Source: Bacteroidales bacterium UBA4360 (GTDB lineage Bacteria; Bacteroidota; Bacteroidia; Bacteroidales; UBA932). From it: a stretch of 64,000 nucleotides of DNA. The notes below the pieces were generated by a model. That model was not told the DNA's origin, made no database searches, and saw only the letters and a program-made list of their open reading frames with translations. The stretch covers positions 38,517 through 102,516 of the forward strand of contig DGSO01000020.1 of NCBI GenBank assembly GCA_002393945.1. Direction: 5' to 3'. Below, piece by piece: positions 13,080 to 49,872 of this stretch (position 1 is its first letter; each line of letters starts with the position of its first letter). The position numbers were made by a program, and so were the translations under genes.

Positions 13080-14239
13080 TGGATACTATAATTGACAGTC
13101 TGAGGCAGTTCTGGCAGTTCACTGGTTTTGCCAACTGCACATGGCAGCACCTTGCCATGATTGCAATCGGCCTCATCTTCATTACCCTTGGCATAGTCAA
13201 AAAGTGGGAACCGCTGCTTCTGGTGCCTATCGGCTTCGGCATGATCATAGGCAATATACCCCTTTTCTTTGACCCGGCCACGGGAGTCGGCCTGAAGATA
13301 GGCATATACGAGGAAGGGTCTGTCCTCAATATCCTGTACCACGGAGTGAGAAACGGCTGGTATCCGCCGCTGATCTTCCTTGGCATCGGCGCCATGACGG
13401 ACTTTTCGGCACTTATTTCGCAGCCGAGGCTGATACTTATCGGCGCGGCTGCACAGCTTGGCATTTTCGGGGCATATCTTCTCGCCCTGGCCCTTGGATT
13501 CGCGCCCAACGAGGCCGGAGCCATCGGCATTATTGGCGGTGCAGACGGTCCTACGGCCATTTTCCTGAGCTCCAAGCTGGCACCTGAACTGATGGGCGCC
13601 ATCGCGGTATCGGCATACTCATACATGGCTCTTGTCCCCGTTATCCAGAAGCCTATCATGCTGCTTCTTACAACGAAGAAAGAGCGTTTGATAAGGATGA
13701 ACAAGCCCCGTACGGTGAGCCAGAAGGAGAAGATCATCTTCCCTATCGTAGGCTTCATCTGCACGGCCTTCATAGTTCCGAGCGGCCTTCCCCTTCTGGG
13801 CATGCTCTTCTTCGGAAATCTTCTCAAGGAAAGCGGAGTCACGAAGCGCCTGGCAGCAACCGCCGGCGGCCCGCTTATCGACATCGTGACAACCCTCATC
13901 GGCCTCACGGTAGGCGCATCCACCCAGGCCGATGTGTTCCTGACCGGGAAATCAGTCCTCATCTTCGGACTCGGTCTCGTTTCCTTCGTGATCGCGACAT
14001 TCTTCGGCGTGAGTTTCGTCAAGTTCATGAACCTGTTCCTGCCGGAAGGCAAGAAGGTCAATCCGCTCATCGGCAATGCCGGCGTTTCGGCAGTTCCGGA
14101 TGCGGCGCGCGTATCCGAGACAGTCGGACTCGAGGCCGATCCTTCCAACCATCTTCTCACCCATGCAATGGCCCCCAACGTGGCCGGTGTGATCGGTTCC
14201 GCAGTTGCGGCAGGTATCCTTCTGGGATTCCTCGGTTAG
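13079..14239 (+). CDS. mmdB: Na+-translocating decarboxylase beta subunit
   Basis: IGIIGGADGPTAIF, GVSAVP, MAPNVAGVIGSA. Confidence 0.93.
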   Translation: MDTIIDSLRQFWQFTGFANCTWQHLAMIAIGLIFITLGIVKKWEPLLLVPIGFGMIIGNIPLFFDPATGVGLKIGIYEEGSVLNILYHGVRNGWYPPLIFLGIGAMTDFSALISQPRLILIGAAAQLGIFGAYLLALALGFAPNEAGAIGIIGGADGPTAIFLSSKLAPELMGAIAVSAYSYMALVPVIQKPIMLLLTTKKERLIRMNKPRTVSQKEKIIFPIVGFICTAFIVPSGLPLLGMLFFGNLLKESGVTKRLAATAGGPLIDIVTTLIGLTVGASTQADVFLTGKSVLIFGLGLVSFVIATFFGVSFVKFMNLFLPEGKKVNPLIGNAGVSAVPDAARVSETVGLEADPSNHLLTHAMAPNVAGVIGSAVAAGILLGFLG

Positions 14240-14313: not shown

Positions 14314-14347
14314 TTTGATTTTTGCTTAAAATTTTTAACTTTGTAAG
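14314..14347 (+). promoter_or_regulatory. iorA promoter
   Basis: TTTG at 14314 and TAACTTTG at 14336-14343 (18-nt spacer). Confidence 0.6.
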
Positions 14348-14392
14348 CAAATGGGCAATTAAAACAATAACCACAAGCCCTGATATAACACT

Positions 14393-15985
14393 ATGGCTGA
14401 AAAAAACCTATTGCTTGGAGACGAGGCACTTGCTCTGGGTGCCATCCATGCCGGCCTTTCCGGCGTTTACGCCTACCCCGGCACGCCTTCTACAGAGATT
14501 ACGGAGTATATCCAGGGACACCCCCTAACTCGTGAAAGAAACATCCACTGCGACTGGTCTTCAAACGAGAAGACTGCAATGGAAGGAGCCCTTGGAATGT
14601 CTTATGCAGGCAAGCGTGCACTCGTGTGCATGAAACACGTTGGCATGAACGTGTGCGCCGATCCTCTCATGGGTTCTGCAATGACAGGAGCGAACGGCGG
14701 TCTCATCATAGCCGCCTGCGACGATCCTTCCATGCACAGTTCACAGAACGAGCAGGATTCCCGCTTCTGGGGCACCTTCGGCATGCTGCCCGTATTCGAA
14801 CCTTCCAACCAGCAGGAGACCTATAATATGACCCGCGCGGCGCTGGATTATTCGGAAAAACGCGGCATCCCTGTCATCATGAGGCTGACTACCCGCATGG
14901 CCCACAGCCGCGCCGTGGTAGAAAGCGCCCCTATGCGCGAACAGAATCAGCTCCACTACCCGGAAAAAGCCCGCCAGTGGGTTACGCTTCCTGTCAATGC
15001 AAGGGTAAGGAACCGCGAACTCATCAAGGATTATGCGCTCTTCGAAGAGGATGCAGCCGCCTCCGAGTTCAACTGGCTCAAGGACGGCCCGGACAGGAGT
15101 CTCGGCATAATTGCCTGCGGTATAGGATACAACTACCTCATGGAGAACTATCCCGACGGCTGCCCGTTCCCGGTTCTCAAGGTGAGCCAGTATCCTTTCC
15201 CCAGGAAACTTGCGCTTGAACTAGCCTCGAAGGTGAAGGCCGTACTCGTCATAGAAGAAGGCCAGCCGCTGGTAGAGGAACGCATGAAGGGATACTTCCC
15301 CACTCCCGTACCTGTAAAGGGACGTCTTGACGGGACTCTTCCCAGGGATGGAGAACTCTCACCGGATGCCGTCCGCGCTGCAGTGGGCCTCCCTGCACTT
15401 CCGCAGTACAACACATCGGAAGTGGTGGTTCCGCGTCCGCCGGCACTTTGCCAGGGCTGCGGGCACAGGGACTTCTATACGGCTCTCAACAATGCCCTGA
15501 AGGATTATCCCGGAGCGAGGGTATTCGGCGATATCGGCTGCTACACCCTTGGCTGGATGCCTCCGTTCAACAGCCTTCATACCTGCGTGGAAATGGGCGC
15601 TTCATGCACCATGGCCCAGGGCGCCGCATTCAGCGGAACCTGGCCTGCAGTTGCCGTCATCGGCGATTCCACCTTCACCCACAGCGGCATGACAGGCCTT
15701 CTTGACGCAGTGAACAGCAAGGCCGATATAACCCTCTGCATATCCGACAACCTCACCACCGGCATGACCGGCGGCCAGGATTCTGCCGGCACAGGCCGCA
15801 TCGAAGCCATCTGCCAGGGACTCGGCGTCGAACCTGAGCATATCCGCACTATCGTCCCTCTCCCCAAGAACTATCCGGACATGGAGAAAGTCATCAAGGA
15901 GGAACTCGACTACCACGGCGTTTCCGTCATCGTATGCCGCCGCGAATGTATCCAGACACTTAGAAGACACGCTGCCAAAAAGTAA
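14393..15985 (+). CDS. iorA: Indolepyruvate ferredoxin oxidoreductase alpha subunit
   Basis: YPGTPSTEI, NEKTA, HSSQNEQDSR, LCQGCGHR, GDIGCY, IGDSTFTHSG (TPP binding), TGMTGGQ. Confidence 0.93.
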   Translation: MAEKNLLLGDEALALGAIHAGLSGVYAYPGTPSTEITEYIQGHPLTRERNIHCDWSSNEKTAMEGALGMSYAGKRALVCMKHVGMNVCADPLMGSAMTGANGGLIIAACDDPSMHSSQNEQDSRFWGTFGMLPVFEPSNQQETYNMTRAALDYSEKRGIPVIMRLTTRMAHSRAVVESAPMREQNQLHYPEKARQWVTLPVNARVRNRELIKDYALFEEDAAASEFNWLKDGPDRSLGIIACGIGYNYLMENYPDGCPFPVLKVSQYPFPRKLALELASKVKAVLVIEEGQPLVEERMKGYFPTPVPVKGRLDGTLPRDGELSPDAVRAAVGLPALPQYNTSEVVVPRPPALCQGCGHRDFYTALNNALKDYPGARVFGDIGCYTLGWMPPFNSLHTCVEMGASCTMAQGAAFSGTWPAVAVIGDSTFTHSGMTGLLDAVNSKADITLCISDNLTTGMTGGQDSAGTGRIEAICQGLGVEPEHIRTIVPLPKNYPDMEKVIKEELDYHGVSVIVCRRECIQTLRRHAAKK

Positions 15986-15991
15986 ACAGCC

Positions 15992-16576
15992 ATGAAAAAG
16001 GACATTATTCTTGCAGGCGTGGGAGGACAGGGTATCCTCTCCATCGCAACAGTTATCGGTTCTGCCGCTCTTGAGCAGGGCCTTTACCTCAAGCAGGCAG
16101 AAGTACACGGCATGAGCCAGAGGGGCGGCGACGTCCAGAGCCACCTCCGCCTGAGTTCAGAGCCCATATACAGCGACCTTATTCCCAAGGGCGGCGCAGA
16201 CCTCATCGTCTCCCTTGAGCCGATGGAGGCTCTCCGTTATGTCCCCTGCCTCGACCGGAACGGATGGATCATAACCAACACCGCTCCCTTAGTAAATATT
16301 CCCAATTACCCGGACATTGAGAAAGTAAAGGACGAACTGTCCTGCTATACCAATGTAATAGCGTTCGACGTCGACGCCCTGGCAAAGGACCTCGGCACGC
16401 CCCGCGGCGCAAACATGGTTCTTCTGGGCGCAACGGCTGCCGCTCTGGGCATTCTGGATGCAGACAAGCTCCGTGACGGTATACGCCGCGTATTTGCACG
16501 TAAAGGCGAGGCCGTGGTGGAATCCAACCTCAAGGCATTCAACGCAGGACTTGAGTATTCACTAAAGCAGAAGTAG
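15992..16576 (+). CDS. iorB: Indolepyruvate ferredoxin oxidoreductase beta subunit
   Basis: GVGGQG, EVHGMSQRGG, NMVLLGA. Confidence 0.93.
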   Translation: MKKDIILAGVGGQGILSIATVIGSAALEQGLYLKQAEVHGMSQRGGDVQSHLRLSSEPIYSDLIPKGGADLIVSLEPMEALRYVPCLDRNGWIITNTAPLVNIPNYPDIEKVKDELSCYTNVIAFDVDALAKDLGTPRGANMVLLGATAAALGILDADKLRDGIRRVFARKGEAVVESNLKAFNAGLEYSLKQK

Positions 16577-16577
16577 C

Positions 16578-17888
16578 ATGGAAAAACCCTTGGAAAAGAA
16601 AGTGCTGGACGAAGCCCTTGCAGAAATGGGCATTGAGGATGTTTCCCGCACTACCATACGCCAGTGCTCCATGCTTGGAAGCATGCTGGAGGAACGGGCC
16701 GGAGAGAAGTTCTCCCACCTGGAGTTCGGCGTCCCCGGTATTCCTGCCTGCCCTATCGGCATAGAAGCGCAGAAAAAGGCTCTTGACAACGGTATCCCTT
16801 CGATTTACCCGTCGGTCCAGGGCCTGCCTGAGCTGAAAAAGAACGCCGCCCGGTTCGTGAAGGCTTTCATTGACGTGGACATAGATCCAAAGGGCATAGT
16901 GCCCACCGTGGGCTCCATGCAGGGCAGCATGACAAGCATCCTGGAATGCTCTCAGCTCGATCCACGGAAAGACACAATCCTGTACATCTGCCCGGGTTTT
17001 TCCGCCCACGGCCGCCAGCCCGACATCCTCGGAATCAAGAACCTGACCTTCGACATATATGAATACAGGGCCGAAAAACTCCGCGAGAAACTGGAGTCCT
17101 ATTTCAAGGAAGGCAATATCGCCGCCATCCTGTATTCCAACCCCAACAACCCGGCCTGGATCTGCCTCACGGAAGAGGAACTCAAGATAATCGGAGACCT
17201 TGCAAACAAGTATGACGTAATAGTCCTCGAGGACATGGCATACCTATGCATGGACTTCAGAAAGGACATGTCAGTCCCCTTCCAGCCGCCGTTCCAAAGC
17301 ACTGTCGCCCGCTACACGGACAACTATGTCCTCCTCATTTCCGGCAGCAAGATATTCAGCTACGCCGGAGAGAGAATCGCCATCGTATGCATTTCAGACA
17401 AGCTCTATCACAGGGAGTATCCTGCGCTCAAGAAGAAATGGGGCATGGGAAAGTTCGGAGACAACTTCATTCTCAACTATCTCTATGTGAATACGTCAGG
17501 CGCTTCACATTCGGCGCAGTATGCCCTTTCGGCCATGTTCGAAGCTGCCGTAGACGGGAGATACAATTTCGTGAAGGAACTCAGGGACTACGGATTCAGG
17601 GCCCATCGCTCACGCGAAATCTTCGACCGCAACGGTTTCCATCTCGTGTATGACAAGGACATGGAACAGACCATTTCCGACGGCTTCTTCTATACGGTGG
17701 AATATAAGGATCTGAGCAACAAGGCTCTTCTTGAAGCCCTTCTCAGATGCGGCATCATTGCCATTCCGCTCAACACCACCGGAAGCGGCCAGTGCGGCAT
17801 CCGCGTCTGCGTTTCGCGCCTTCTCAGCGACGAAGACTTCGACCTTCTGGACAAGCATCTCAAGCTCTTTGTAAAACTCGTAAACTAA
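16578..17888 (+). CDS. PLP-dependent aminotransferase class I/II
   Basis: NPNNP, D-AY, SGSKIFSYAGERI (PLP lysine), IRV. Confidence 0.88.
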   Translation: MEKPLEKKVLDEALAEMGIEDVSRTTIRQCSMLGSMLEERAGEKFSHLEFGVPGIPACPIGIEAQKKALDNGIPSIYPSVQGLPELKKNAARFVKAFIDVDIDPKGIVPTVGSMQGSMTSILECSQLDPRKDTILYICPGFSAHGRQPDILGIKNLTFDIYEYRAEKLREKLESYFKEGNIAAILYSNPNNPAWICLTEEELKIIGDLANKYDVIVLEDMAYLCMDFRKDMSVPFQPPFQSTVARYTDNYVLLISGSKIFSYAGERIAIVCISDKLYHREYPALKKKWGMGKFGDNFILNYLYVNTSGASHSAQYALSAMFEAAVDGRYNFVKELRDYGFRAHRSREIFDRNGFHLVYDKDMEQTISDGFFYTVEYKDLSNKALLEALLRCGIIAIPLNTTGSGQCGIRVCVSRLLSDEDFDLLDKHLKLFVKLVN

Positions 17889-17894
17889 GCCCGA

Positions 17895-19187
17895 ATGAAA
17901 TATGTATCTGCCGACGAGGCCGTAAAACTCGTCCGAAGCGGCGACACCGTCGTCTGTCAGGGAGGAACCTCGGTTCCAGTCATCCTTCAGGAAGCACTTG
18001 CAAGAAGGCATGATGAACTCAGGGACGTCCAGATTGTCTGCGGCTTCAACATTACCGCCGGCGAAGCACCTTTCTGCAAGCCTGAATACAAGGACTCGTT
18101 CCTGGTGAACAGCATTTTCATCAGCGGCGACCAGCGCAAGCACATTGCCGCCGGTTACGGAACCATGACGCCGGCTTTCCTGGGAGAGGTTCCGGGGCTC
18201 TTCCGCCGCGGTGAAATCCCGGTGGACGTAGCCTTCATCAACTGCTCCCTTCCGGACGAGAACGGCTACTGCAGCTATGGTATTTCAGCCGATATCGCCG
18301 TATCGGCAGTGGAATGCGCGCGGGTAGTCATCGCCCAGGTGAGCCCCAACATTCCCTACCTGTACGGAAAGTGCCTCATACATGAGTCCAAGATAAGCGC
18401 GGCTGTATACTGCGAGGAGCCGCCCCTCGGCATGGTCTTCGGGGAGCCGACGCCCATCGAGGCGGCCATTGGCGCCAATGTCGCTTCCCAGATTCCGGAC
18501 GGCGCCTGCCTGCAGATAGGCGTCGGAGGCATCCCGAACGCCGTTTTGAACGGGATAAAGCACCATCAGCACCTGGGCCTTCACACTGAGGCCATGACCG
18601 ACGGCGTCATCCGCCTCATCAAGGAGGGCGTAATCGACAATTCGCTGAAGAAAGTGCATCCGGGAGTTAGCGTCGCGGCCCTTGCCATAGGCTCGGCGCC
18701 CATGTACAAGTACATAGACCACAACAAAACCATGGAGTTCTTCGACGTGGCCTATACCAACAATCCCTTCCTCATCGCCCAGAACCCCAGGGCCTGCGCC
18801 ATCAATTCGGCGATAGAGGTGGATCTTACAGGACAGGTCTGTGCCGATTCCATCGGCGAAATGATCTTCTCAAGCGTCGGCGGCCAGCATGATTTCATGT
18901 ATGGCTGCGCACTGGCCGAGGGCGGACGCACCTTCATCGCACTCCCCTCCCGCACATCCAAGGGAAAGGCCAAGATCGTCCCCACCCTGACACCCGGGGC
19001 CGGAGTGGTTACGACAAGGTTCCAGACACAATATGTTGCTACTGAATACGGTATAGTTTACCTGAGGAACCTTTCACTGGCCCAGCGGGCTAAAGCACTG
19101 ATTTCGATAGCTCACCCGGACGACCGGGATGAACTGGAAAAAGCCGCATGCAAGCGCTTCGGATACAGTTTTTTGAGACTCAAATAG
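17895..19187 (+). CDS. Acetyl-CoA hydrolase / acyl-CoA transferase family protein
   Basis: LQIGVGGIP, LHTE catalytic Glu, DLTGQVCADS, GGQHDF, ISIAHPDDR. Confidence 0.9.
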   Translation: MKYVSADEAVKLVRSGDTVVCQGGTSVPVILQEALARRHDELRDVQIVCGFNITAGEAPFCKPEYKDSFLVNSIFISGDQRKHIAAGYGTMTPAFLGEVPGLFRRGEIPVDVAFINCSLPDENGYCSYGISADIAVSAVECARVVIAQVSPNIPYLYGKCLIHESKISAAVYCEEPPLGMVFGEPTPIEAAIGANVASQIPDGACLQIGVGGIPNAVLNGIKHHQHLGLHTEAMTDGVIRLIKEGVIDNSLKKVHPGVSVAALAIGSAPMYKYIDHNKTMEFFDVAYTNNPFLIAQNPRACAINSAIEVDLTGQVCADSIGEMIFSSVGGQHDFMYGCALAEGGRTFIALPSRTSKGKAKIVPTLTPGAGVVTTRFQTQYVATEYGIVYLRNLSLAQRAKALISIAHPDDRDELEKAACKRFGYSFLRLK

Positions 19188-31987: not shown

Positions 31988-34189
31988 TTAAAAATTGAGC
32001 GCCAACTTCACCGTCCAGTTGCGTGGAGCCTGAGGATAAACGCCGATTCCGGAAGAGACCGTATCCGTAGCCGGATCGTAGCTCTCCCATCTCCACCCGG
32101 AGGCATAGTAAAGGTTATTGAGGAGATTGTTCACATACGCAGAAACTACAAGGGACGAGCGGCCGATGAAAGATACGGTGCGCTGCACCATCAGGTTCAT
32201 CACCCCATAGGCCGGAACGGTCATTTCCTCACGCATGGAATTGTCGAGGTACTGTTTTCCCACATATTTGTAATCGGCCGTGACTAGCCATTTCCTGGAA
32301 GGTGATGCTGAAAGACGTACCATTCCCACCGTGGAAGGAGACATAAGCATGGTGGTCTTCCCGTAATGGACAGCGTGAGTCGCTGAGTAATCCTCATACG
32401 GGACATAGGAGGTATAATCGGCAATCTCGTTGACTGATAGCGTAAGGTTGCCGTCGGCACGGAGCCAGCGGCTCATCTGCCAGGCGCCGGCAAGTTCAAC
32501 TCCCCTTCTCCAGGCGCGGGGGACGTTCTCCTTGATGGCATATCCCGAAGACGAGAGCTTTCCCGTTTCAAGCAGCATGTCCGTATACTCCATCAGGTAT
32601 ACGTTTGCCGATGCAGAGAGCCTCCTGCCCCCGAACTGCCAGCCCAGTTCGATGTCGGTCATCTTTTCGGGGACTATATCGGCCCCGTCACCTTTGACGT
32701 TCTCCTTGATGTCTCCCCTGCCGGGCTCGCGGTTGCCGAGGGCGACGGACGCAAAGAAACTGTGCCGGCCGAAGAGCGCCTTGACGCCTGCCCTGGGGTT
32801 GAAGAAATCCCACTTCCTGTGATAATCGAGCATATCGGCAGGGTTTGAGCCGTATTCGATGAAATCGTCGTCCCGGCCGTCAAGATCGTAGCCGATGGTT
32901 CTGTATTGGAGGTCGGCATAGGCGGTGAGCCATGCGAAGGGATGGTATTCCGCCCTTGCAAAAACGTTGGCTTCCTTTTTCCAACCAGTGTTTCCGTACC
33001 AGTCCACATCCCCGTAATTGTAGGACGAGCCAAGCTGTTTTGTCCAAAGGAGTTCTCCCCAGTGGCCTCCCCTGTATTTGGAGAAGTTCACGCCCGCAGT
33101 GAGATCTAGCCCGCGCGTGCTGTAGCGGAGATTCGAATTCAGGACCCACAGGTCGTTGTCCATCATCTTGCGGTAAGTCATGTCGGAACGGGCGGGCGTT
33201 CCTTCCGGGAGGTCCGTAAAGCCGTAATTCTTCAGTTTCTTATTGCTTTTATAATACTCGTCGTAGCCTTCTCCATTGGTATAATTGAGAGTGGTGCTCC
33301 AAGCGAGGTTCGGCCTCAGGGCACGCGTGTAATTGCCCTGGAAATGGTTCTGGACGTAATTGTCTGTCTGGTTGGGATAATAATACACATTCCCCAAATC
33401 ATCGTAATACTCTCCGGCACCGTTATATGTCCTGTCCTTCTTGTACTGCTCTATGTCTATGCCGTCCCAGGTGATTCCGCTACGCTGTTTTCCCCTCAGA
33501 TAAGTAAAACGGAGGGACTGCCCGCGTCCAAGCCAGCCCAGCATGAAAAATGCCGAATTCGACTGCACGAATGCATTCCGGATATAACCGTCAGTGGTTC
33601 CCTTTGCATACGCCGCGCTTGCATACAGCCCGTGCCTGCTAATTCCGGTCGAACCCGAATGCGTGACCATCTGCGTATCGTATGAGCCCCAGCTGTGTTC
33701 CGTCCTGCCCCAGCCATTAGGCGTTGCAAATGCGGTGTTCATATTGATGCTGGCGCCGAAGGCACCCGCGCCGTTTGCGCTTGTGCCAAGGCCTCTCTGG
33801 ACCTGTACGCCGGAAATCAGCGCCGTCAGCGCCGGAATATTAACCCAGAAGACTTCCTGGGACTCGGCGTCATTCAGGGTGATTCCGTTGAGAGTGACGT
33901 TAATCTGGGAGCCTTTGCTGCCGCGGATAGTCATTGCAGAATTGCCGAGACCGGTACCGCCTTCATTGTAAGTAACCACGGAAGGCAGCAGGTTAAGCGT
34001 CATCGGAATTGAATTGGATGGATTCTGGGACTCGAGCTGAGCCTTGCCCATTTCGGAAAAAGTGACAGGAGTGTTCTTTCCTGCACGGGATGCAGATACA
34101 ACAACGGAGTCCAGGCGTTCAACCTTCTCCTGTGCCGATGCAACGGCACACACGGCAGCCAGAACTGCCACAAAGCATAGTTTTTTCAT
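31988..34189 (-). CDS. TonB-dependent receptor, probably for thiamine
   Basis: Signal peptide ASA-Q, DSVVVSA TonB box, RGSKGSQINVTLNGI plug, C-terminal Phe; TPP riboswitch directly upstream. Confidence 0.9.
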   Translation of the reverse strand: MKKLCFVAVLAAVCAVASAQEKVERLDSVVVSASRAGKNTPVTFSEMGKAQLESQNPSNSIPMTLNLLPSVVTYNEGGTGLGNSAMTIRGSKGSQINVTLNGITLNDAESQEVFWVNIPALTALISGVQVQRGLGTSANGAGAFGASINMNTAFATPNGWGRTEHSWGSYDTQMVTHSGSTGISRHGLYASAAYAKGTTDGYIRNAFVQSNSAFFMLGWLGRGQSLRFTYLRGKQRSGITWDGIDIEQYKKDRTYNGAGEYYDDLGNVYYYPNQTDNYVQNHFQGNYTRALRPNLAWSTTLNYTNGEGYDEYYKSNKKLKNYGFTDLPEGTPARSDMTYRKMMDNDLWVLNSNLRYSTRGLDLTAGVNFSKYRGGHWGELLWTKQLGSSYNYGDVDWYGNTGWKKEANVFARAEYHPFAWLTAYADLQYRTIGYDLDGRDDDFIEYGSNPADMLDYHRKWDFFNPRAGVKALFGRHSFFASVALGNREPGRGDIKENVKGDGADIVPEKMTDIELGWQFGGRRLSASANVYLMEYTDMLLETGKLSSSGYAIKENVPRAWRRGVELAGAWQMSRWLRADGNLTLSVNEIADYTSYVPYEDYSATHAVHYGKTTMLMSPSTVGMVRLSASPSRKWLVTADYKYVGKQYLDNSMREEMTVPAYGVMNLMVQRTVSFIGRSSLVVSAYVNNLLNNLYYASGWRWESYDPATDTVSSGIGVYPQAPRNWTVKLALNF

Positions 34190-34191
34190 AA

Positions 34192-34264
34192 ATCCTTACG
34201 GCGGTATCAACCGCATCAAGTTCAAAGGGTGTAATCTCAATCGGGAGTTTCCCGATACCCCTAT
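34192..34264 (-). ncRNA. TPP riboswitch
   Basis: Minus strand reads AGGGGTATCGGGAAACTCCCGA-TTGAGA-TTACACCCTTTGAACTTGATGCGGTTGATACCGCCGTAAGGA, with TPP consensus blocks (UGAGA, ACCC, GAAC-UGAU, P5 GCGG/CCGC, GUA-GGA). Confidence 0.9.
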
Positions 34265-34269
34265 ATAAT

Positions 34270-35022
34270 TTATTTTTTCAATTCAATCCTATACATCCGC
34301 GGCCAGTTCTTGCCCGTCAGGTAGACATGGCCCTCCGAATCCACGGCTATGCCGTTAAGCACATCTGTATCCTTGGTCCTGAGACTCGCGGGCAGAAGTC
34401 CCCTGCAGTCTACCGTTGCCTCCACCTTGCCGTTTGAGGGATTGATGATGGCAATCATGTCTGACGTATAGACATTGGCCCAGATCTTCCCGTCTATCCA
34501 TTCCAGTTCGTTAAGGTACTGAAGGCTTCTGTCACGGAGTGTCACGCGAAGACGCTTCTGAACCTTGAGGTTGCTGTCAAGGAAATAGAGCGTAGAGGTG
34601 CCGTCGCTTGCGATGAGCTGTTTTCCGTCGGTGGTGAGTCCCCATCCTTCACGCGGATATGCCAGCGTAGCCTTGTAGGTGAGCGTTTTCGCATCGTACC
34701 TGAAGGCCAGCTTGTTTGTCCAGGTGAGGACATAAAGGTCATCGCCAAGGATCACGGAGCCCTCACCGAAATACTTCGATGACAGCTTCTTGATTGCCGT
34801 CACTTCCCCGGTCTCAAGGTCCACGGTACGGATTGAACTCTCTCCCCACTGCCCGGTGGTCTCGTACAGCACCCCGTCATGGAAGAACAGCCCCTGCGTG
34901 TAAGCATGGACATCGTGAGGGTACTCTGCCGTCACCTTTACCTTATACTCCTTCACCTGCGCACTTGAACAGGCGGAAATCAGGAGCCCGGCAACCAGGC
35001 CTATTATGCTGTTGATTCTCAT
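34270..35022 (-). CDS. Glutaminyl-peptide cyclotransferase, type I (beta-propeller), lipoprotein
   Basis: Lipobox LISAC; YTQGL, ETTG, FGEG, LTW, EGWGLT, LNELE, VLNGIA. Confidence 0.9.
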   Translation of the reverse strand: MRINSIIGLVAGLLISACSSAQVKEYKVKVTAEYPHDVHAYTQGLFFHDGVLYETTGQWGESSIRTVDLETGEVTAIKKLSSKYFGEGSVILGDDLYVLTWTNKLAFRYDAKTLTYKATLAYPREGWGLTTDGKQLIASDGTSTLYFLDSNLKVQKRLRVTLRDRSLQYLNELEWIDGKIWANVYTSDMIAIINPSNGKVEATVDCRGLLPASLRTKDTDVLNGIAVDSEGHVYLTGKNWPRMYRIELKK

Positions 35023-35087: not shown

Positions 35088-35100
35088 CCACGCTAAAAAA

Positions 35101-35406
35101 GGCAGGACGATCTGTCGCGGCGCTTCGGCGCTGAGGAAAGTCCGCACAGGAAAGGGCGCCCGTCTGCGGAAAGCGCAGCAGGGAGTAATCTTTGGCACGC
35201 GATAACAGAAAACAACCGCCGCAAGGCAAGGGTGAAAACGCGGGGTAAGAGCCCACGACTATGCATGGCGACATGCAAAGGGTATCGCACACGGGCCTGC
35301 AAGACCAAATATACCGGCAGATTAAGGGCTGCCCGCTCTTTGCCGGGGGGTAGGTTGCGAAGATAAATGACAGATTCAAAAACAGAAAGCGGCTTACGGC
35401 CCTGCC
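35101..35406 (+). ncRNA. rnpB: RNase P RNA, bacterial type A
   Basis: GAGGAAAGTCC, AAGGGTGAAA, CAAGACCAAATA, AGATAAATGAC, ACAGAAAGCGGCTTAC; P1 GGCAGG/CCTGCC; compensatory P4 CCGC/GCGG. Confidence 0.95.
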
Positions 35407-35438
35407 TTTTTTGTAAAGAAACAGTTAACTTATACAAT

Positions 35439-48530: not shown

Positions 48531-49484
48531 ATGACAAACGTACTAGTTATAGGTTCCACCGGACAGATTGGCTCCGAACTCACGATGAAGTTACGCAGGG
48601 AAATTCCCGGCAGCACGGTTGTAGCCGGTTACATCCCCGGCGCAGAACCCAAAGGCGAACTTCTTGAAAGCGGCCCGGCAGAGATAGCCGACGTAAGGGA
48701 TGCAAAGGCCCTTGCCGATATCGTTTCAAAGTATAAGATAGATACCATATATAATCTTGCGGCGCTGCTGTCTGCAGTTGCAGAGCGCAAGCCTCTCCTC
48801 GCCTGGGACATCCAGATGAACGGACTCCTCAATATCCTTGAGGTTGCACGCGAGAAAGGCGTAGCCGTTTTCACGCCCTCGTCAATCGGCTCCTTCGGCC
48901 CGGAAACCCCTCATCAGGGAACTCCGCAGGACACCATCCAGCGCCCCCGCTCAATGTACGGCGTTACCAAGGTTGCCACAGAACTTCTCAGCGACTATTA
49001 TTTCCACAAATACGGCGTTGACACCCGTTCCGTACGTTTCCCGGGCCTTATCTCCTACACTACCCTTCCCGGCGGCGGCACCACGGATTACGCCGTTGAA
49101 GTTTACTATTCCGCAGTCAAAGGAGAAGAATTCGTATGCCCCATCGCCCCCGGCACATTCATGGACATGATGTACATGCCTGATGCCCTCAAGGCCGCCG
49201 TAGACCTCATGCAGGCCGATCCCTCCCGCCTCAAGCACCGCAATTCCTTCAATATCGCATCCATGAGTTTCGAGCCCGAACAGCTCTTCGCAAAGATCCG
49301 CGAATACGTACCCGGACTCCGCGTCCGCTACGAGGTGGATCCCGTGCGCCAGGCAATCGCAACCTCATGGCCGGACAGCATGGATGACAGCTGCGCCCGT
49401 GAGGAATGGGGTTGGAAACCGTCATATACACTTGACCAGATGACACAGGATATGCTGCTTCATCTGAGAGAAAAATTATTGTAA
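48531..49484 (+). CDS. tdh: L-threonine 3-dehydrogenase, SDR/epimerase type
   Basis: GSTGQIG, LSAVAE, PSSIG-FG, YGVTK, PGGGTTDY; divergent from kbl. Confidence 0.88.
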   Translation: MTNVLVIGSTGQIGSELTMKLRREIPGSTVVAGYIPGAEPKGELLESGPAEIADVRDAKALADIVSKYKIDTIYNLAALLSAVAERKPLLAWDIQMNGLLNILEVAREKGVAVFTPSSIGSFGPETPHQGTPQDTIQRPRSMYGVTKVATELLSDYYFHKYGVDTRSVRFPGLISYTTLPGGGTTDYAVEVYYSAVKGEEFVCPIAPGTFMDMMYMPDALKAAVDLMQADPSRLKHRNSFNIASMSFEPEQLFAKIREYVPGLRVRYEVDPVRQAIATSWPDSMDDSCAREEWGWKPSYTLDQMTQDMLLHLREKLL

Positions 49485-49528
49485 TCGTTTGTATTTTTAG
49501 AATCGAAACATATTATAACACATTTAAA

Positions 49529-49543
49529 TATTGATAATCAATA
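49529..49543. promoter_or_regulatory. 7-1-7 palindrome, possible operator
   Basis: TATTGAT-A-ATCAATA, about 48 nt upstream of the orphan promoter. Confidence 0.4.
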
Positions 49544-49590
49544 GATTAGCATATTTTTTAAAAAATATTCAAAAAAATCTTTATAAAAAA

Positions 49591-49621
49591 TTTGCAAATC
49601 AAAGAAATTGTCGTACCTTTG
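49591..49621 (+). promoter_or_regulatory. Consensus Bacteroidota promoter, orphan
   Basis: TTTG (49591-49594), 19 nt, TACCTTTG (49614-49621). Confidence 0.8.
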
Positions 49622-49624
49622 TAT

Positions 49625-49743
49625 CCGGATTGAGGAAGTAAGGGTTCTCCTCACGGAATCAATCTATTGGTTATTAGTTTTAGTGTTATTAATTATGTGG
49701 TTAGTAGGAGCGTCCGCCTGTGAAGGTCGACGCTTTCTGTTTT
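49625..49743 (+). ncRNA. Candidate trans-acting sRNA (about 120 nt)
   Basis: Own promoter; 5' hairpin (CCG/CGG plus TGAGGA/TCCTCA); G/U-rich unstructured core 49665-49707; terminator GAGCGTC-C-GCCT-GTGA-AGGT-C-GACGCTT followed by TCTGTTTT. Confidence 0.7.
49707..49743 (+). terminator. Intrinsic terminator with a GNRA (GUGA) loop
   Basis: Stem 49707-49735 plus a U-rich tail. Confidence 0.75.
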
Positions 49744-49771
49744 ATATAATATCTGCAGCACGAATGGGAAC

Positions 49772-49797
49772 AAAAAAAGGCGCCTTGGAAGGCGCCT
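49772..49797 (-). terminator. tRNA-Cys terminator
   Basis: AGGCGCCT-TGGA-AGGCGCCT stem; continues as a T run on the minus strand. Confidence 0.8.
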
Positions 49798-49801
49798 GAA
49801 G

Positions 49802-49872
49802 AGGTGCGAAGCGGAATCGAACCGCTGTAGCAGGTTTTGCAGACCTGTGCCTGACCACTCGGCCATCGCACC
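49802..49872 (-). tRNA. trnC: tRNA-Cys (GCA), CCA not encoded
   Basis: GGTGCGA/TCGCACC acceptor stem, anticodon arm CAGGT-CTGCAAA-ACCTG, GGTTCGATTCC, U73 discriminator. Confidence 0.97.

Follow-up and report, generated by a model that had tools for sequence, protein, structure and literature searches.

The iorA operon and a predicted small RNA

We have analysed a stretch of 64,000 nucleotides (the window) from the genome of Bacteroidales bacterium UBA4360 (assembly GCA_002393945.1, contig DGSO01000020.1, positions 38,517 to 102,516 of the forward strand), which contains an operon headed by the gene iorA and the locus of a predicted small RNA (sRNA) whose core is complementary to two short boxes at the iorA translation start. 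The operon (14393–19187, plus strand) encompasses iorA (14393–15985), iorB (15992–16576) and the genes of an aminotransferase (16578–17888) and a coenzyme A (CoA)-transferase (17895–19187), which are separated by gaps of 1–6 nucleotides and carry the Pfam domains POR_N and TPP_enzyme_C (iorA), POR (iorB), Aminotran_1_2 and AcetylCoA_hydro. The iorB product scores above the NCBIfam IorB equivalog cut-off (299 vs 222 bits) and the best NCBIfam match of the iorA product is IOR_alpha, under its cut-off (492 vs 651 bits). Together, the two genes show the organization of an indolepyruvate:ferredoxin oxidoreductase (IOR), with an alpha subunit containing thiamine pyrophosphate (TPP)-binding domains adjoining an IorB subunit, and iorA is a fair name for the first gene in light of its POR_N and TPP_enzyme_C domains, its best match to IOR_alpha and the adjoining iorB. 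Judged from the known pathway, aminotransferase, IOR and CoA-transferase would turn aromatic amino acids into arylacetates, among them indole-3-acetate and phenylacetate. The IOR reaction can also proceed in the opposite direction in rumen anaerobes, yielding aromatic amino acids.

The iorA open reading frame (ORF) encodes a protein of 530 amino acids and is preceded by an in-frame TGA at 14381–14383, four codons upstream of the ATG. The gene upstream of iorA stops at 14239, with a terminator-like hairpin and a T run behind it. A putative Bacteroidota promoter of the operon (14314–14343, plus strand) consists of a –33 TTTG element (14314–14317) and a –7 box TAACTTTG (14336–14343), latter of which is also found upstream of many iorA orthologues. 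The location of this promoter pair would place the transcription start near 14348–14350 and thus both boxes inside a leader of about 45 nucleotides. Within this leader, RNAfold predicts a hairpin (14353–14380, plus strand) with a weak stem of 4 base pairs, formed by GGGC (14353–14356) and GCCC (14377–14380), and a loop of 20 nucleotides that displays the first of the two boxes.

The predicted sRNA of about 115 nucleotides (49627–49743, plus strand) is composed of a 5' hairpin (approximately 49627–49665), a core (49667–49704) and a GC-rich terminator hairpin (49707–49736) that is followed by a U run. Its putative promoter (49591–49621, plus strand) contains a –33 TTTG element (49591–49594) and a –7 box TACCTTTG (49614–49621), which conforms to the canonical TAnnTTTG and was found in all 28 sRNA homologues inspected. 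The core, a C-free segment of 38 nucleotides that is predicted to be largely unpaired, is identical in every aligned copy, whereas both flanking hairpins vary. Homologues were identified in 31 of 37 genomes of the same genus and in none of 24 other families. In a search with a pattern of 36 nucleotides derived from the core, allowing up to two mismatches, all 56 sampled high-quality genomes of Cryptobacteroides were positive, whereas the 36 other genera of the family, represented by 345 genomes, gave no match. Public genomes labelled as Candidatus Cryptobacteroides, an uncultured lineage of rumen, caecum and faeces, or as uncultured Bacteroidales contain at least 120 exact copies of the core. 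With a promoter box, a terminator and conservation in the absence of an ORF, the sRNA, which is previously undescribed and specific to this genus, looks real and constrained.

A first-pass annotation of the window had proposed a bipartite target site for this sRNA across the iorA start, whose letters turned out to be exact to the base. Box 1 (14368–14375, plus strand), which reads TAACCACA, is the reverse complement of sRNA positions 49696–49703 (TGTGGTTA), and box 2 (14385–14393, plus strand), which reads ATAACACTA and has the A of the iorA ATG as its last base, is the reverse complement of positions 49681–49689 (TAGTGTTAT). As proposed, the order of the boxes is compatible with a single antiparallel duplex containing an internal loop of 9 nucleotides on the side of the mRNA (14376–14384) and 6 on the side of the sRNA (49690–49695). 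The part of the core that would be used on the iorA leader (49681–49703, plus strand) thus comprises UAGUGUUAU (49681–49689), AUUA (49692–49695) and UGUGGUUA (49696–49703).

Both boxes are predicted to be unpaired in the mRNA and box 2, covering –8 to +1, overlaps the start region. For box 1 (UAACCACA), we obtained pair probabilities of 0.83–0.99, an opening cost of 0.03 kcal/mol and an energy of –10.6 kcal/mol for the helix alone; equivalent values for box 2 (AUAACACUA) are 0.77–1.0, 0.12 kcal/mol and –9.4 kcal/mol. Opening of positions 49681–49703 within the full-length sRNA costs 3.3 kcal/mol and the hybrid energy of the two-box duplex is –18.3 kcal/mol. In the cofold ensemble of the full-length sRNA with 113 nucleotides of mRNA, a model that cannot represent loop-loop contacts, the binding energy amounts to –14.8 kcal/mol and the pairs of the two boxes form with probabilities of 0.77–1.0. 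The predicted minimum-energy duplex contains in addition an optional bridge of 4 base pairs, in which UGAU (14381–14384, plus strand) pairs with AUUA of the sRNA including one G·U pair, with a probability of 0.39–0.47 and a contribution of just 0.1 kcal/mol. An alternative register on the same leader, pairing AAUAACCA with 49668–49675, has an ensemble probability of 0.

Core complementarity in iorA leaders of the genus

Within the genus, iorA is limited to part of the genomes and occurs in two lineages, which we have separated by identity level alone into a close group, termed type 1, with 71–97% amino acid identity to the protein of the window, and a distant lineage with 59–63% identity. Of 401 genomes, 58 (about 15%) encode type-1 iorA. 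The 61 type-1 leaders collected are highly diverse and were grouped by single linkage at 70% identity into 20 classes. Each leader was scored in two separate comparisons, against 150–200 dinucleotide shuffles of either the target or the sRNA. In this way, 13 of the 20 classes reached p ≤ 0.05 in target shuffles (binomial p = 7e-13) and 12 of 20 in sRNA shuffles, with mean z-scores of –2.26 and –2.09, respectively, where it has to be considered that the classes are not fully independent phylogenetically and that shuffles ignore shared ancestry. At the level of single leaders, the same threshold was reached by 34 of 61 (target shuffles, mean z –2.16) and 39 of 61 (sRNA shuffles, mean z –2.17).

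The complementarity exceeds chance across these orthologues, while four kinds of control were null. Among 300 random genes of the own genome with at least 80 nucleotides of ORF-free upstream sequence, 5.3% were found at p ≤ 0.05 in sRNA shuffles, with a mean z of +0.17. No significant pairing was detected with either shuffle in 22 distant iorA leaders, 11 from within the genus and 11 from outside the family (mean z +0.27 for target and +0.46 for sRNA shuffles), and the type-1 classes differ from this group with Mann-Whitney p-values of 6e-6 (target) and 2e-6 (sRNA). The most telling control is provided by type-1 iorA leaders from sister genera, for which the pattern search returned no sRNA copies. 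These leaders belong to proteins that are 76–82% and 67–73% identical to the one in the window and carry the same promoter box, yet only one of 20 was significant in target and none in sRNA shuffles, with a mean z of about 0. Finally, leaders of other genes in the genus show weak or no conservation of pairing. This is the case for tdh (3 of 22 in target and 2 of 22 in sRNA shuffles, mean z –0.16 and +0.15), for kbl (6 of 22 and 4 of 22, mean z –0.50 and –0.24), both of which are neighbours of the sRNA gene and were rejected as conserved targets, and for glyA (7 of 39 and 3 of 39, mean z –0.35 and –0.18). The claim that iorA would be the strongest single target is thus borne out with respect to conservation, where, of the four genes tested, it outperforms kbl, glyA and tdh by a wide margin. 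With 13 of 20 classes pairing with the core and sister genera null, the comparison supports the two-box site at the iorA start: complementarity to the core is a property that leaders of type-1 iorA selectively retain, and only where the sRNA is present.

The feature that is retained is the pairing with the core and not a fixed pair of words. Different lineages use different registers, including 49681–49703 against –25 to +1 in the own genome, 49668–49690 against AAUAACAC-G-AAAAC...AACCA in the groups L036, L037 and L065, and 49668–49700 against –36 to +1 in L062–64, where z reaches values between –5 and –6.5. Averaged over classes, the most-used core positions are GGUU (49669–72), GUUUUAGUGU (49677–86) and GUGGUU (49697–49702), whereas the mRNA is paired mainly between –20 and –1, where the probability averaged over orthologues is highest. 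Irrespective of the register, most of the pairing lies between –20 and +1. In 7 of 20 classes, the leader carries an ACCAC-type element followed downstream by one of the ACACU type, compared to 0.6% of background leaders and none of 22 controls, although these motifs were defined after seeing the data and the energy test is thus the unbiased one. In five lineages (own, L034, L210, L212 and L216) ACCAC is located in, or mostly in, a predicted hairpin loop, whose stem differs in sequence each time, with RNAfold predicting GGAGGG/CCCTCC in L034, GGGAAAG/CTTTTCCC in L210 and GGAGG/CCTCC in L212 and L216. These hairpins are a hint that the display of box 1 in a loop is conserved.

Several results weigh against a regulatory role of the site and lend weight to chance, in which an A/C-rich, G-poor leader would meet a C-free, G/U/A-rich core that wobble-pairs with almost any such sequence, with no regulation resulting. 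Against a background of 2017 start regions of the own genome, obtained with a crude ORF caller, single matches to the core complement are at the level of dinucleotide shuffles, with exact matches of at least 9 nucleotides in 38 regions (29.9 ± 7.7 expected) and of at least 8 nucleotides in 110 (96 ± 16 expected). Two collinear exact blocks with a sum of at least 17 nucleotides occur twice, in iorA and in a SusC-like gene, compared to 0.47 ± 0.63 per genome with shuffled cores. The iorA site is moderately unusual with respect to composition-matched shuffles, with p = 0.045 (target), p = 0.010 (sRNA) and a z of about –2.2. When ranked by the heterodimer ensemble free energy of sRNA positions 49661–49706 with the region from –45 to +20 of each start, which in short leaders takes in some untranscribed promoter DNA, iorA with –17.0 kcal/mol occupies position 21 of 2017. 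Within the window, gcvH and the tdh-like gene both score slightly better and leave it third, and the strongest target proposed by the first-pass annotation is not the strongest by energy. This ranking supersedes one based on RNAduplex alone, which was dominated by inflated full-length duplexes and gave a crude rank of 39 of 2017.

The comparison adds further points on the same side. The expectation that both boxes would be conserved upstream of iorA orthologues held for the pairing with the core but not for the exact 8- and 9-mers, which are absent from most orthologues. Seven of the 20 classes do not show significant pairing, including the largest one with 25 leaders, whose median p is 0.21 in target and 0.06 in sRNA shuffles, and the distant iorA lineage lacks the site altogether in genomes that carry the sRNA. 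Conversely, the exact core is found in 52 of 60 genomes with type-1 iorA, while the remaining eight, all metagenome-assembled and 64–96% complete, contain no detectable sRNA, and one of these, at 96% completeness, keeps CTAACCAC beside the ATG. Moreover, the own genome (94% complete) encodes no detectable RRM_1 (PF00076) protein of the RbpB type, which the same search finds in B. thetaiotaomicron, so any chaperone of the sRNA is not an RbpB homologue. The incomplete independence of the leader classes and the mentioned limits of the cofold model and of the scored region have to be counted here as well.

Taken within its own genome alone, the iorA match is thus not beyond chance, and it becomes so, by far, only on comparison of orthologues. 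There, 13 and 12 of 20 leader classes that look independent outperform composition-matched shuffles of the target and of the sRNA, respectively, whereas equally A-rich leaders of sister genera, distant iorA leaders and random leaders of the own genome are all null, and we consider chance complementarity an unlikely explanation.

Proposed mechanism and relation to known regulatory RNAs

We favour the interpretation that the leader of the iorA-iorB-aminotransferase-CoA-transferase operon is probably a direct antisense target of the genus-specific sRNA, which would block the initiation of iorA translation. In the proposed mechanism, two accessible elements of the leader would pair with two adjacent parts of the invariant single-stranded core, with box 1 located in the loop of the small 5' hairpin and box 2 ending on the A of the AUG. 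Engagement of both boxes would result in a clamp of approximately 17–21 base pairs covering –25 to +1. In Bacteroidota, translation starts on an unstructured A-rich leader and not on a Shine-Dalgarno sequence, and a duplex in this region should consequently keep the 30S subunit off and repress iorA. The repression would probably extend to the tightly packed downstream genes, and the sRNA would in this way gate the flux of aromatic amino acids and arylacetates. We infer the transcription of both RNAs in the form described here, their encounter in vivo and repression as its outcome.

The same complementarity and conservation would be expected if the pairing were real but had another outcome, with an abundant iorA leader acting as a sponge that titrates the sRNA, or with the pairing stabilizing or activating the mRNA. 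The stable 5' hairpin of several leaders is in line with such a role, as is the distribution of the two partners: the sRNA is found in every sampled genome of the genus and type-1 iorA in only about 15% of the genomes, which implies that the sRNA must have other business. However, the predicted pairing lies over –20 to +1, the region that is needed for initiation, and the iorA start region is already unstructured, leaving no inhibitory fold that the pairing could open. Additionally, GibS and the FopS family, characterized sRNAs of Bacteroides thetaiotaomicron, repress by pairing at translation initiation regions (PMC11697453). An outcome other than repression thus appears rather improbable to us.

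A different objection concerns the leader elements themselves, since ACCAC and ACACU(A/G)AAAC might serve another purpose as protein site, translational enhancer or leader structure, to which the fit of the sRNA would be incidental. CA-rich translational enhancers are known from other bacteria, and box 1, which often resides in a hairpin loop with covarying stems, could be a contact of a protein or of the ribosome. Yet the position and register of the elements vary, other stretches complementary to the core take their place in some lineages, as in the case of L062–64, and close iorA orthologues of genera that lack the sRNA do not contain them despite the same promoter and style of leader. With complementarity to the core as the only property common to the lineages, a function of this kind is very improbable.

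Returning to the repression of iorA by the sRNA, a more far-reaching version would describe the relationship as that of a frozen sRNA and a moving target. The core remains unchanged in more than 100 species, while iorA leaders would re-invent their complementarity by combining the sub-seeds GGUU, GUUUUAGUGU and GUGGUU differently in each lineage. In this version, which we put forward as tentative, iorA might be the principal selected client of the sRNA, and a two-step clamp, with a loop contact preceding the occlusion of the start codon, might govern the fermentation of aromatic amino acids in Cryptobacteroides of rumen and gut.

The kind of site, an sRNA pairing with an mRNA at the translation start, is already known from other systems. 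In E. coli, the sRNA OxyS binds two short elements of the fhlA leader, one in a hairpin loop and the other at the ribosome-binding region, to block initiation, and both contacts are loop-loop interactions made via two hairpins of the sRNA. The iorA site similarly consists of two separate elements of a single leader, one displayed in a loop and the other at the ribosome-binding region, but here both sRNA segments are part of one unstructured stretch and only box 1 is, weakly, displayed in a loop. In enterobacteria, the G/U-rich seed of GcvB pairs with C/A-rich stretches just upstream of the start codons of genes of amino acid metabolism and transport, with redundant or alternative pairing sites. 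The resemblance to our sRNA is one of analogy only: there is no match to the Rfam GcvB family, Bacteroidota as a rule lack Hfq, and promoter, architecture and phylogenetic range differ.

The closest parallels are found in GibS and FopS (Ruttiger et al. 2025, PMC11697453; Ryan et al. 2020), which are likewise trans-acting sRNAs of Bacteroidota and combine a TAnnTTTG promoter and a terminator with an extended single-stranded seed of high conservation. Some genomes contain several copies of them. On one of its targets, GibS pairs through two seeds (R1 and R2; PMC11697453) and in this respect resembles the two-box iorA site, a likeness in mechanism and not in family membership. The covariance model of GibS (Rfam RF04182) scores 17.7 bits on our sRNA, compared to a gathering score of 115. 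Unlike GibS and FopS, the sRNA contains an extra 5' hairpin, is limited to Candidatus Cryptobacteroides instead of Bacteroidaceae, and has an amino acid catabolic operon and not susC or a glycoside hydrolase as its candidate target.

Searches against Rfam did not assign the sRNA to any family, neither at gathering thresholds across the window nor at permissive E-values for positions 49480–49810, and weak matches to rteR, GibS and the L20-leader, all far under threshold, were discarded. An RNAalifold analysis of a MAFFT alignment of 18 copies, of which some on the minus strand are incomplete, was uninformative, with hairpins that differ by indels, whereas covariation in the core is impossible as it is invariant. 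A blastn search for diverged versions of the sRNA in sister genera identified just short fragments resembling 5' leaders, with a best E-value of 0.002. One of these is located in a sister genus without the sRNA (L259, G313:C95, genus g48, around locus position 1500), where a small lipoprotein-like gene is preceded by the leader sequence CTAACTACCTAATTAATAACACAAATG, which matches the core complement in about 24 of 27 bases (blastn 89% over 27 nucleotides), ending at the start codon. This leader, observed in one genome, could be a relic target or a coincidence. The genomes of relatives contain between one and six copies of the sRNA, often at the ends of contigs (for example in G008, G240 and G093), which suggests that repeated copies break assemblies, and such breaks may explain the seemingly missing sRNA in some metagenome-assembled genomes.

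Further candidate targets, other features and significance

In the own genome, several start regions beyond iorA also match the core complement. The longest exact match of the genome, AACACTAAAACTAA with 14 nucleotides at –19 to –6, is found outside the window at glyA (C31:10777–12121, minus strand), which encodes a serine hydroxymethyltransferase (Pfam SHMT). As a conserved target, glyA was rejected, since its leaders do not differ between the genus and sister genera (Mann-Whitney p = 0.48). A dihydrolipoyl-dehydrogenase-like gene (Pyr_redox_2, Pyr_redox_dim; C32:305381–306710, minus strand), also outside the window, contains an exact match of 13 nucleotides (TAATTAATAACAC) abutting the ATG and occupies rank 4 of 2017 in binding energy. 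Together with gcvH at rank 10, it hints at a glycine and one-carbon theme among potential targets. The SusC-like gene (C17:96560–99761, minus strand, outside the window), which codes for 1067 amino acids and holds rank 11 in binding energy, is, apart from iorA, the sole start region in which two collinear exact blocks add up to 17 nucleotides (ATAACAC ... AAAACTAACC). Within the window, the start of a gene named pepD from its sequence (around 501–512; C29:37561–39019, minus strand) shares with iorA the stretch AATAACACTATG, a match of 10 nucleotides to the core complement that ends at the ATG.

Genes for a tdh-like protein and kbl adjoin the sRNA gene in about 22 of approximately 150 loci (L001–L030, L076–L195), and the synteny found in the window is thus common to a minority of species. 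The sRNA terminator is followed, 60 nucleotides downstream and on the opposite strand, by a tRNA gene (49802–49872, minus strand) with the anticodon GCA as read from the alignment. Further structured RNAs of the window include a TPP riboswitch (34175–34272, minus strand, 68 bits) and a class A RNase P RNA (35099–35412, plus strand, 180 bits).

What is known of riboregulation in Bacteroidota comes from a handful of sRNAs of cultured Bacteroides and Segatella, and we have found no literature on riboregulation in Candidatus Cryptobacteroides, an abundant uncultured genus of rumen and gut, or on its sRNA. With the site described here, a newly recognized genus-wide sRNA gains a candidate target that is supported across species, for which sister genera offer a built-in negative control. 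This combination renders the function of the sRNA directly testable in a surrogate host. The iorA site also illustrates the turnover of target sites against an immutable seed. Finally, a post-transcriptional control of the operon would bear on the nitrogen economy of the rumen and on the microbial output of arylacetates.

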